A stretch of DNA of 64,000 bases from a virus (lineage: Duplodnaviria > Caudoviricetes), in IMG/VR virus record IMGVR_UViG_3300021979_000004, positions 128,001-192,000 of that record, one strand, 5' to 3'. A model generated the notes under the pieces. It was not told the origin of the DNA. It ran no database searches and saw only the letters and a program-made list of their open reading frames with translations. Shown piece after piece: positions 10,591 to 16,402 of this stretch. Position numbers and translations under genes: made by a program. The first letter of the stretch is position 1; each line of letters opens with the position of its first letter.

Positions 10591-10626
10591 TATTTATTGA
10601 CGAACAGTATGTTTATGATATAAATA
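10591..10626. promoter_or_regulatory. Divergent late promoters (AATAAATA on - at 10591-10598; TATAAATA on + at 10619-10626)
   Basis: Motifs directly upstream of the gp13-like gene and the TerL fragment. Confidence 0.65.
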
Positions 10627-10652
10627 ATATGTACATAAAAAAGGATAATAAG

Positions 10653-10997
10653 ATGAGTGAAAAGTTTACAGACTCTTTTGTAGTTGAAGATTGGGAAGTA
10701 CTAACGCCGGTCGGATACCGAGATATAATGAGCTTTCATAAAACAATTGAGTTTGATGTATGGGAAATATCAACTGATAGCTTCACCCTGAAGTGTGCTG
10801 ATGATCATATTGTTATGAAGCATGGGGTAGTTGAGACATTTGTTAAAAATATCAACGTAGGTGATAAAATCTTGACGGATAACGGACTTGAAACTGTTAT
10901 CGAAGTCAAAGACTTGGGTTACAAAGAACCGATGTATGATATTCAAGTAAATGATTTCTCTCAGCTATATTACAGTAATGGTATTGTAAGTCATAAT
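10653..10997 (+). other. C-terminal split-intein half (long IntC, about 115 aa)
   Basis: Block B-like KCADDH, block F MYDIQV, block G YYSNGIVSHN, followed by Thr +1. Confidence 0.88.
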
Positions 10998-11546
10998 ACT
11001 GCTTGTGCATCGCTTTATCTATTGTGGTATGCGATGTTCGTACCTGATACAAACATTCTAGTAGCGGCTCACAAAGGCAGTGGTGCGGCAGAAATCATGG
11101 ATCGTATACGTTATGCGTATGAAGAATGTCCAGATCATATACGTTGTGGTGTCACCACTTATGCTAGTGGACGTATCGTATTTGACAACAAGTCTTCTAT
11201 AGTTGCACAAACCACTACAGAAAATACAGGACGTGGTTTATCTATTTCCTTGCTTTACTGTTTGGATGCTGGTACTATGGTTCGGGTCAGAGATAAGGAA
11301 ACTAAAGAAGAGAAAGACGTTTCTTTGGAAACCTTATACACTGAGCTTAATGGCGATGAGTTCATTGAGTTTAAGAAGCAAGCCATGCTCAGAGTAGTAT
11401 TTGAAGACGATTATTATGTGGATGTCCCTGAGTCGTACATGTTTACCGTGAATGACATAAAGACAACCATAGAGAACATTACACATGGTGATGAAATATT
11501 GATCGGAAACGAATACTTTAAAGTTGTTGATATACAAGCAATTTAA
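10653..11546 (+). CDS. terL: Terminase large subunit ATPase middle fragment flanked by split-intein halves (IntC-extein-IntN)
   Basis: AAGGA RBS before ATG 10653; extein TACASLYLLWYAMF...AHKGS...GRGLSISLLY matches the gp17 segment between Walker A and Walker B; flanked by SHN/T and Y/CLD intein junctions. Confidence 0.9.
   Translation: MSEKFTDSFVVEDWEVLTPVGYRDIMSFHKTIEFDVWEISTDSFTLKCADDHIVMKHGVVETFVKNINVGDKILTDNGLETVIEVKDLGYKEPMYDIQVNDFSQLYYSNGIVSHNTACASLYLLWYAMFVPDTNILVAAHKGSGAAEIMDRIRYAYEECPDHIRCGVTTYASGRIVFDNKSSIVAQTTTENTGRGLSISLLYCLDAGTMVRVRDKETKEEKDVSLETLYTELNGDEFIEFKKQAMLRVVFEDDYYVDVPESYMFTVNDIKTTIENITHGDEILIGNEYFKVVDIQAI
11259..11543 (+). other. N-terminal split-intein half (IntN) with degenerate Hint-like extension
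   Basis: Block A CLDAGTMV...SLETLY; no block B His and no terminal HN before the stop. Confidence 0.85.
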
Positions 11547-15326: not shown

Positions 15327-15812
15327 ATGAACACATGGGATAGAAGGTTTTTAGGATTGGCACTGTTTTACTCATCCTTTTCTAAAGACCCTTCCACTAA
15401 GGTTGGTTGTGTACTTGTTAATGATAAGAACGTACCAGTCGGCCTTGGTTATAATGGTTTTTCACGTCATTCAAAAGACCTACCAGAAATACTTAATGAT
15501 CGTCCTGAAAAATATAAAAGAACCATTCACGCAGAAGAGAATGCCATCTACAATAGAACTGGTGATATTGAAGGATCGATTGCTTACCTTACCCATCCAC
15601 CTTGTGTGCCTTGTGTAAATCGCTTAAGCCAGAACGGTATTAAGGATGTTAGATTTATTCAAGGAACCGATGAAGACTTTTATGAACGATGGAATCTAGG
15701 CGAATCAGTATCTGAAATTGAAGAACTCAAAATGACTTATCAATCATATGTTATGAATGATGATGAAAAAGATAAAATATTCATGGAAGTGATGAAATCA
15801 TGGCGAAGCTAA
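15327..15812 (+). CDS. cd: dCMP deaminase
   Basis: SKDPSTKVG, GYNG, HAEENAI, PCxxC; TTGACA promoter at 15253. Confidence 0.92.
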   Translation: MNTWDRRFLGLALFYSSFSKDPSTKVGCVLVNDKNVPVGLGYNGFSRHSKDLPEILNDRPEKYKRTIHAEENAIYNRTGDIEGSIAYLTHPPCVPCVNRLSQNGIKDVRFIQGTDEDFYERWNLGESVSEIEELKMTYQSYVMNDDEKDKIFMEVMKSWRS

Positions 15813-16402
15813 AATTTGTCTACTCAGTAATGAACGCTGGAAAAAGTACTCACTTGTTACAACTTGCACATAACTATAGTGTCTTTCACAATAAGACACT
15901 ATTGATAACCTCAGACCTTGATACGCGTTCAAAGGTTGGTGATCAGTATTATGTAGAGTCTAGATTGGGTATAAAACATGAAGCAATACCATATAGTAGA
16001 GAACAAGACATTCAGGAAATTCTTGAAAGTATAGACTATACTCCATCATGTATTGTTGTCGATGAGGCACAATTCCTTAGCCCATATAACGTACAACAAC
16101 TTACAGACTTGGTAGACTTCATGAATATTCCAGTTGTTTGCTATGGTCTGAGGACTGATTCGTTTGGTAACTTATTTGAAGGTAGTGAAGAGCTTTTTAA
16201 ACATGCCGACAAAATAGAAGAGATAAAACAACTGTGTTTCTGTATGTCAAAAGCAACACATATTTTACGTTATGATGATGATTTTAATGTTGTAAAAAAA
16301 GGGAACCAAGTTGAAATTGGTTCCGAGGATAAGTATGTCTCTGTGTGCCGTAAGCACTGGAAAACATTAAAGAGTGTTAAGTTTTTGAAAACCAATGATT
16401 AA
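15800..16402 (+). CDS. tdk: Thymidine kinase
   Basis: MNAGKST, VDEAQF, YGLRTD, YVSVCRKH. Confidence 0.96.
   Translation: MAKLKFVYSVMNAGKSTHLLQLAHNYSVFHNKTLLITSDLDTRSKVGDQYYVESRLGIKHEAIPYSREQDIQEILESIDYTPSCIVVDEAQFLSPYNVQQLTDLVDFMNIPVVCYGLRTDSFGNLFEGSEELFKHADKIEEIKQLCFCMSKATHILRYDDDFNVVKKGNQVEIGSEDKYVSVCRKHWKTLKSVKFLKTND

Follow-up and report, generated by a model that had tools for sequence, protein, structure and literature searches.

A predicted middle piece of a phage large terminase, set between the halves of two split inteins

Introduction

How might a phage obtain a complete large terminase subunit (TerL) when the reading frame for part of it opens inside one intein and closes inside another? 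The question is raised by a 297-amino acid (aa) open reading frame (ORF) in a 64,000-nucleotide (nt) stretch of viral DNA, hereafter the window, which is G000:C1:128001-192000 of a 217,982-bp linear viral contig in IMG/VR (record IMGVR_UViG_3300021979_000004). The ORF consists of the C-terminal half of one split intein (IntC1), a segment of TerL (the extein), and the N-terminal half of a second split intein (IntN2). We hold with good confidence that a T4-type large terminase is here encoded as three separate precursors, the predicted product of this ORF being the middle one, and that the enzyme would be completed by two trans-splices and one cis-splice. The initial annotation, made from the letters of the window, had proposed a middle piece and two trans-splicing events; the partner C-terminal piece (C-piece) on the same contig and the TerL pieces of Salicola phage SCTP-2 support that proposal, which was incomplete in that a third, cis-splicing intein is also needed.

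The middle piece

IntC1 (aa 1-115) ends in YYSNGIVSHN, is followed by Thr116, and carries the marks of a class 1 intein with a HINT fold, namely a block B His, a block G His-Asn with a nucleophile at position +1, and the fold itself. Pfam intein models match it weakly and below threshold. Its best sequence matches in the PDB (phmmer) are VidaL (E 6e-6) and CatC (E 2e-5), and in an AlphaFold2 (AF2) model built with 40 homologues, residues 2-104 superimpose on VidaL (6vgv) with Z 9.6 and a root-mean-square deviation (rmsd) of 3.8 over 99 residues at an identity of only 21%, and on Cat (6dsl) with Z 9.0; dozens more inteins score Z >8. The extein that follows (aa 116-202) is matched by TerL profiles (phrog_5989, E 4e-27; phrog_36964, E 9e-24), and its model resembles T4 gp17 (3cpe) with Z 7.7 and 30% identity. 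IntN2 takes up the remaining 95 aa (aa 203-297) and begins CLDAGT at Cys203. The same division of the ORF had been made in the initial annotation, as an IntC of about 115 aa ending YYSNGIVSHN, 87 aa of TerL and an IntN beginning CLDAGT, and each of these parts was recovered at its place; an expected short second IntN was not, the measured length being 95 aa.

An alternative in-frame ATG lies at 10629, upstream of the Met at 10653. Because 40 homologous clusters and gene 267 of SCTP-2 all begin at the Met equivalent to 10653, the start was assigned there. The end of the ORF, within intein 2, is likewise the same in gene 267 and in related assemblies from ENA and Logan. Scans for sigma-70 promoters and terminators around the ORF gave results at background level.

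The C-terminal piece and the reconstructed terminase

If the ORF is a middle piece, an ORF reading IntC-CDE-nuclease should exist elsewhere in the genome, as the initial annotation had predicted. Such an ORF of 694 aa is present on the same contig (Table 1), and it is the only other place contig-wide that TerL family searches match, in agreement with the earlier statement that the 64-kb window holds no further TerL piece. The C-piece consists, in order, of a 110-aa IntC2, a 24-aa extein, a 224-aa cis intein and a 336-aa TerL extein. IntC2 has TPEH in block B, ends in SSN, is followed by CDELAF, and has CatC as its best PDB sequence match (E 9e-8). The 24-aa extein opens with the Walker B Cys-Asp-Glu; the cis intein runs from Cys to GSN and has a linker of ~70 aa with no recognised endonuclease; and the 336-aa part extends from the TGG coupling motif through the nuclease. 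Positions 547-875 of phrog_36964 match the C-piece with E 1e-67, and its family bears a precomputed PF17289 hit. A search of IMG/VR returned no close relative of the C-piece.

When the three exteins (87 + 24 + 336 aa) are joined, they align at 54.6% identity with the uninterrupted 523-aa TerL of another uncultured phage. The alignment starts right past RQTGK, crosses LLY/CDE (here and below the slash marks a splice junction), has no gap at either junction, and leaves exactly the first 88 residues of the intact protein uncovered. It agrees with the earlier placement of the middle extein between the Thr that follows the Walker A GK and the residue that precedes Walker B. The Walker B Asp-Glu, the coupling motif and the C-terminal nuclease of a T4 gp17-type enzyme (Terminase_6N/6C) are thus all collinear with an intact TerL.

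Salicola phage SCTP-2 and the N-terminal piece

A cultured phage carries the same arrangement in full. The genome of SCTP-2 (MF360958.1; 440,001 bp, in a record titled 'complete genome') encodes exactly three TerL pieces, at ~429, 256 and 216 kb (Table 1), and no intact terL. Its middle piece is 56.6% identical to the one described here, has identical length, and has the same neck-gene neighbour, and its C-piece has the same layout of IntC2, 24-aa extein and cis intein, with an IntC2 that ends in Gln (VSQ/C). The Walker A P-loop (SRQxGK) is borne by the SCTP-2 N-terminal piece (N-piece).

The corresponding N-piece was not found on the 218-kb contig with regular expressions for GK-Cys plus block A, with tblastn, with the SCTP-2 protein or a five-sequence profile as query, or with phrog_36964, phrog_5989 and phrog_2; the sole match on the contig was a weak one, on the first part of IntN2. 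The N-fragment that the initial annotation had called for (RQxGK plus a short IntN beginning with Cys) thus exists in SCTP-2 and in metagenomes and is missing from this incomplete contig, and since it is absent there, the first splice in this phage is deduced from its relatives. A cognate IntN1 with its Cys1 directly on the preceding extein is seen in SCTP-2 (RQLGK/CVDYET...) and in four other clusters, and the P-loop itself would lie on the N-piece that this contig does not show. CheckV estimates the contig to be 73% complete. Contigs of 457,965 and 461,710 bp carry C-pieces with 85-87% identity to the one described here (the 87% value belongs to the 457,965-bp ENA scaffold), so over half of the genome may be missing, and the CheckV figure is probably too high. 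In IMG/VR, the SCTP-2 N-piece found no match as a query and the N-piece profile recovered mostly ordinary TerL N-termini; among four large contigs from the profile list, three (328-462 kb) have a contiguous TerL and one (64 kb, ~14% complete) gave a weak match only. Gene order gave no lead either, because the SCTP-2 N-piece directly adjoins a thymidine kinase-like ORF, and the similar ORF here (window ~15776-16399, plus strand, called by eye from motifs) adjoins a different gene, for a 277-aa P-loop protein on the minus strand.

A contig that is incomplete, both by CheckV and by comparison with the 458-462 kb contigs of C-piece relatives, and that has no N-piece might also be expected if the ORF were a decaying remnant or an assembly artefact, with a working intact terL on an unassembled part of the genome. 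That explanation is scarcely credible. On this contig the C-piece, too, opens within an intein, and an intact terL was sought without success both on this incomplete contig and in the complete SCTP-2 genome. In relatives with as little as 49% identity the ORF is still free of stops, and its catalytic residues are invariant. A misassembly at either end, which the initial annotation had named as a concern, is argued against, at the level of assemblies, by independent ones: for a middle piece of 87% identity, ENA and Logan assemblies give an ORF with unchanged limits, the upstream neighbours are those seen here (a 263-aa ORF, a NUDIX gene and the neck gene), and downstream a similar run of small ORFs leads to a 285-aa protein, assigned there to ExoX-like_C. 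The neck gene, which lies 5′ of the middle piece and is divergent from it, as had been noted, was identified as that of a gp13/14-type neck adaptor.

Elsewhere in SCTP-2, a PhoH-like ATPase (~61.5 kb) contains a large in-frame intein ending THN/T, which surfaced only since phrog_36964 has intein columns.

Table 1. Positions of the TerL pieces and of their parts; coordinates are those of the window unless a contig or genome is named.
Feature	Location	Strand	Remarks
Middle-piece ORF	10653-11546	+	single 297-aa ORF, three parts
T4-type late-promoter-like motif TATAAATA	10619..10626	+	26 nt 5′ of start codon
Ribosome-binding site AAGGA	10640..10644	+	8 nt 5′ of ATG, from sequence
IntC1, 115-aa C-half of split intein 1	10653..10997	+	blocks B (CADDH), F and G, ending SHN
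TerL extein, 87 aa (residues 116-202)	10998..11258	+	Thr+1 past Walker A Lys to Tyr preceding Walker B Cys-Asp-Glu
IntN2 head, ~33 aa, block A (Cys1-Leu-Asp)	11259..11357	+	counterpart of short IntN in atypically split TerL inteins
IntN2 tail, ~60 aa, HINT central lobe (block B to N4 region)	11358..11543	+	structure and profile matches
TAA stop	11544..11546	+	closes middle piece within intein 2
TerL C-piece, 694 aa	G000:C1:71579-73663	+	65 kb upstream of middle piece, 56 kb before window start
SCTP-2 N-piece, 130 aa	SCTP-2, ~429 kb		87 extein residues ending RQLGK, then 43-aa IntN starting Cys-Val-Asp
SCTP-2 middle piece (gene 267)	SCTP-2, 256 kb		
SCTP-2 C-piece	SCTP-2, 216 kb		same IntC2, 24-aa extein and cis-intein layout

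Conservation and intermediate states

Relatives of the middle piece were sought in a collection of 5.8 billion proteins. About 39 clusters (49-95% identity, 296-314 aa) span the whole middle piece, and in dozens of others (240-260 aa) the same IntC1-extein leads into a short IntN2 of 35-45 aa. Invariant throughout an alignment of 40 full-length clusters are the block B His, the Ser-His-Asn-Thr of junction 1 and the Tyr-Cys-Leu-Asp of junction 2; by residue these are H52, S113, H114, N115 and T116 in IntC1 and at its junction, and, at the start of IntN2, C203, L204 and D205, to which D214 and Y229 can be added. The IntN1 of relatives is 37-44 aa long. The C-piece clusters (n = 19) begin with IntC2 and always continue Cys-Asp-Glu. 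This +1 motif is kept also where IntC2 ends in Gln and not Asn, as it does in metagenomic clusters (VLQ or VVQ) and in the collinear locus described next (SHQ/C).

Other viral contigs have no intein in TerL, a contiguous intein at site 1 or site 2, or a two-piece split at either site. On a 250-kb contig (IMGVR_UViG_3300033120_001080, here G003; positions 206500-214500), an N-piece, a middle piece, an HNH gene and a C-piece are collinear: the N-piece has 128 aa, the middle piece 249 aa with a short IntN2, the free-standing HNH-type endonuclease 429 aa, and the C-piece 470 aa. Between N-piece and middle piece there is also a degenerate second copy of IntC1-extein, 300 aa long, whose tail is diverged and truncated. 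This collinear locus would seem to represent a stage that preceded the dispersed arrangement, and because such intermediate states are seen in other viral contigs, the dispersed three-piece state looks like the end of the fracture-then-dislocation path of Dassa et al. (2009), taken twice in one gene.

TerL is interrupted in other ways as well. A number of ORFs stop inside an IntN past a conserved F-R-R-E-x-x motif of the ATPase/nuclease linker (e.g. REHQ/CVSAST...), and some lineages thus cut TerL at yet another place, in combination with site 1 or site 2. In the cultured Vibrio phage vB_VmeM-32 (KU160494.1), the annotated 704-aa TerL begins with an IntC1-type half, and its N-piece must therefore be elsewhere; the same protein has a contiguous mini-intein past the Walker B Asp-Glu, two residues downstream of the site used here, a position that indicates independent invasions of the same motif.

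The second IntN: a head and an extra lobe

Newly recognised at this locus is that only the first ~33 aa of IntN2 (the head) match a short IntN, and that the remaining ~60 aa (the tail) are a copy of the central lobe that lacks the His and overlaps the lobe of IntC2. Compared with a contiguous 148-aa intein that occupies the same TerL site, the head shows 47% identity to residues 1-30; with the short IntN2 of the collinear three-piece locus it shares 43%. IntC2 matches residues 43-148 of the contiguous intein (E 1.6e-22), and because together they cover it, head and IntC2 make a complete intein. Pairing of the 95-aa IntN2 with a short canonical IntC on a fourth piece was considered and rejected: the exteins abut without a gap, and head plus IntC2 already correspond to a whole contiguous intein. 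Both IntC halves (115 and 110 aa) are longer than 100 aa and include block B, as in a split placed after block A. A short block A segment as the whole of the IntN, the other mark of an atypical split, is found in the sister clusters with a 35-45-aa IntN2 and not in the IntN2 described here.

The tail (aa ~236-297) is predicted by AF2 with a pLDDT >90, and its top structural matches (50 of 50) are inteins or HINT domains, in the central lobe; against residues 43-100 of gp41-1 it gives Z 8.7 and an rmsd of 1.7 over 56. In profile comparisons (hhalign) it matches the block B-N4 lobe of its partner IntC2 with a probability of 93.9% (E 1.5e-7) and IntC1 with just 21%. The lobe is recognised by structure and profile; by sequence, IntN2 found nothing in the PDB other than a chance-level match to ComR. 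Where IntC2 has TPEH, the tail reads VPES, and 0 of the aligned family members keep the Thr/His pattern at this place. The tails of this phage and SCTP-2 are 48% identical without insertions or deletions. Because this is about as conserved as the working intein parts (52-53%), the tail is not free-falling junk.

The whole of IntN2 is collinear with residues 1-100 of the contiguous intein, so that ~55 intein residues overlap with IntC2. Residue ~100 is, by our own estimate, about where canonical splits and endonuclease insertions fall. An overlap of ~55 residues fits two gene copies or alleles that were truncated at different points, and the tail is most likely a relic of this kind. This copy is devoid of the catalytic Thr and His but is still predicted to fold and is still constrained, probably because it stabilises a fragment that is unable to fold alone. 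A more active part for the tail can be imagined, in which it is a natural 'cage' or dummy lobe that shields the IntN2 head until IntC2 displaces it, blocks cyclisation of the 87-aa segment by IntC1, and orders the trans-splicing steps; we consider this unlikely. If true, the lobe would parallel, in nature, the caged or zymogen split inteins that have been engineered, and could serve as it stands as an orthogonality device.

Proposed assembly of the terminase

In the assembly that we propose, an N-piece like that of SCTP-2 (~87 aa ending RQxGK, followed by an IntN1 of ~40 aa) would be encoded on the unassembled part of the genome, and the three precursors would be made late in infection. The short IntN1 would complete the near-whole HINT domain of IntC1, and GK would be joined to Thr116; the ~33-aa head of IntN2 would complete IntC2, and Tyr202 would be joined to the Cys of CDE; the third intein would splice in cis. 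The product would be a TerL of ~535 aa in which Walker A, Walker B and the coupling motif are each restored across a splice junction. One cut falls within Walker A, the next immediately ahead of Walker B and the last at the coupling motif, so that no single piece should be able to hydrolyse ATP. The motif TATAAATA lies 26 nt upstream of both the middle piece and the C-piece (in the latter together with AGGAG ahead of the ATG) and recurs with nearly the same spacing ahead of the SCTP-2 N-piece, and a 7-of-8 version, CATAAATA, precedes the SCTP-2 middle piece and C-piece.

Several observations, besides the N-piece that is absent from the contig, weigh against this assembly. The window contains TATAAATA 8 times against 9.6 expected by chance, and with no enrichment the motif is only suggestive of a late promoter. 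The block B of IntC1 (CADDH) has an invariant Ala49 at the usual position of Thr. The penultimate His is absent from both inteins of the C-piece, with IntC2 having Ser ahead of its terminal Asn. Lastly, IntC1 and IntC2 are related (hhalign probability 98%, ~25-32% identity) and the N-piece profile matches the IntN2 head (E 0.004); since the two inteins are homologous, cross-reaction is possible, and the orthogonality of the pairs is something that we infer.

Cross-reaction could take two forms. IntC1 and IntN2 might circularise the 87-aa segment, IntC-extein-IntN being the layout that is used for backbone cyclisation (the SICLOPPS layout) and also that of the middle piece, or IntN1 and IntC2 might skip the middle piece; in either case productive TerL would be a minor or kinetically controlled product. 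The homology of the two IntC halves and the match between the IntN1 profile and the IntN2 head, to which tblastn assigns 40% identity over 30 aa, are what such a reading would predict. The low identity of IntC1 and IntC2 speaks against it, as does the persistence of the layout in many lineages, which implies that it works; an AF2 model of the whole middle piece, in which IntN2 is not docked on IntC1 and the two have separate structural matches, is a weak argument in the same direction. Cross-reaction on this scale is very improbable in our judgement.

A second alternative dispenses with splicing. The pieces might assemble non-covalently into a three-chain terminase complex, with the intein halves acting as high-affinity dimerisation modules, and this would sit well with an IntC2 that lacks the penultimate His (SSN) and ends in Gln in some relatives, with the dead lobe of IntN2, and with the fact that splicing is so far predicted from sequence. 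It is nevertheless very improbable. Cys1, the block B His, the terminal Asn (Gln in some) and the +1 Thr or Cys are kept across 40 middle-piece and 19 C-piece clusters, and two HINT domains of ~110-150 aa left in place would part the P-loop Lys from the next residue and a beta-strand from the catalytic Asp-Glu. Related atypically split TerL inteins have moreover been solved, and are named, as engineered splicing inteins (Cat, 6DSL), and atypically split TerL inteins splice efficiently. Assembly by two trans-splices and one cis-splice thus keeps the standing that we gave it at the outset.

A fractured clamp-loader gene on the same contig

Beyond the end of the window, at G000:C1:209975-212978 on the minus strand, there is a fractured clamp-loader (RFC/gp44-like) gene. 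It comprises, in order, an N-piece ending GTGK/CLDGSEY... with a 31-aa IntN, a 461-aa ORF for a Vsr-like endonuclease, and a 393-aa piece that starts with an IntC of ~131 aa ending HHN/TT. Judged by these parts, it is a fractured gene of the textbook kind, and its cut is at the P-loop, as at site 1 of TerL.

Relation to known systems

Split inteins are central to protein engineering, and naturally co-evolved orthogonal pairs are scarce. In every natural case for which we found a description, two polypeptides are joined; the essential viral ATPase at this locus is cut within both of its nucleotide-binding motifs and is predicted to be rebuilt from three. Many uncultured giant phages keep this layout, and since the cultured SCTP-2 does so too, it can be tested directly at the bench. 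It raises the questions of how cross-reaction and cyclisation are avoided, whether the order of the splices matters, and whether an ATPase that becomes active only on assembly reflects regulation or tolerated parasitism.

The closest relatives are the atypically split TerL inteins. A GOS 'Terminase' fractured gene with such an intein was described by Dassa et al. (2009, PMC2677866). The inteins at this locus resemble AceL-TerL, GOS-TerL and the consensus Cat (PDB 6DSL) in having a gp17-type terminase as host, a split right past block A, a short IntN, and an IntC of >100 aa that contains block B. Unlike those inteins, which make one cut and give two pieces, two inteins here cut the ATPase domain at Walker A and Walker B, and a third intein is present in cis; in further contrast to the GOS-TerL type, the pieces are at least 65 kb apart, no endonuclease gene lies alongside, and IntN2 has an extra dead HINT lobe. 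VidaL (PDB 6VGV), which is metagenomic and atypically split, is the best sequence and structural match of IntC1 and is split at the same place. Its nucleophiles are a Cys paired with a Ser/Thr, a combination seen here in Cys1 and Thr+1; we take its host protein not to be TerL and its split to be single.

In fractured genes, split-intein halves flank a free-standing homing endonuclease gene, and stage IV of the proposed path is 'dislocation' (Dassa et al. 2009, PMC2677866). As in those genes, a split intein breaks an essential phage gene; unlike in the locus described there, the TerL pieces are dispersed and have a neck gene and small ORFs as neighbours, which corresponds to stage IV, reached twice in one gene. 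An endonuclease gene between adjacent halves is present in the clamp loader on the same contig and in the TerL locus of G003, and absent from TerL here. The initial annotation had seen no homing endonuclease in the window, and this was borne out by contig-wide searches for HNH and GIY-YIG domains and for paralogues of the one Vsr-like endonuclease, all of them negative, LAGLIDADG and other nuclease families not having been searched.

Combined trans- and cis-splicing of one host protein has a parallel in DnaE of Trichodesmium erythraeum, which Liu and Yang reportedly described in 2003 as having one split intein plus cis inteins. The likeness is that one protein needs both kinds of splicing; the difference is that DnaE has a single split intein and two polypeptides, as against two split inteins and three polypeptides here. 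Three-segment assembly by tandem trans-splicing with orthogonal split inteins has been engineered (e.g. PMC7210297, PMC12707363, PMC7090010). The middle fragment in those systems is likewise IntC-segment-IntN; they are man-made, whereas the arrangement at this locus is natural and evolved. A literature search, of incomplete coverage and thus no proof of absence, returned no natural protein that requires two split inteins and no IntN with a redundant dead lobe. Known relatives (the atypically split TerL inteins and VidaL) account for each half-intein taken by itself. What the locus adds is a connection with a phage in culture and the overlap of lobes between IntN2 and IntC2; the duplicated lobe is a record of how a contiguous intein gene was broken and dispersed.

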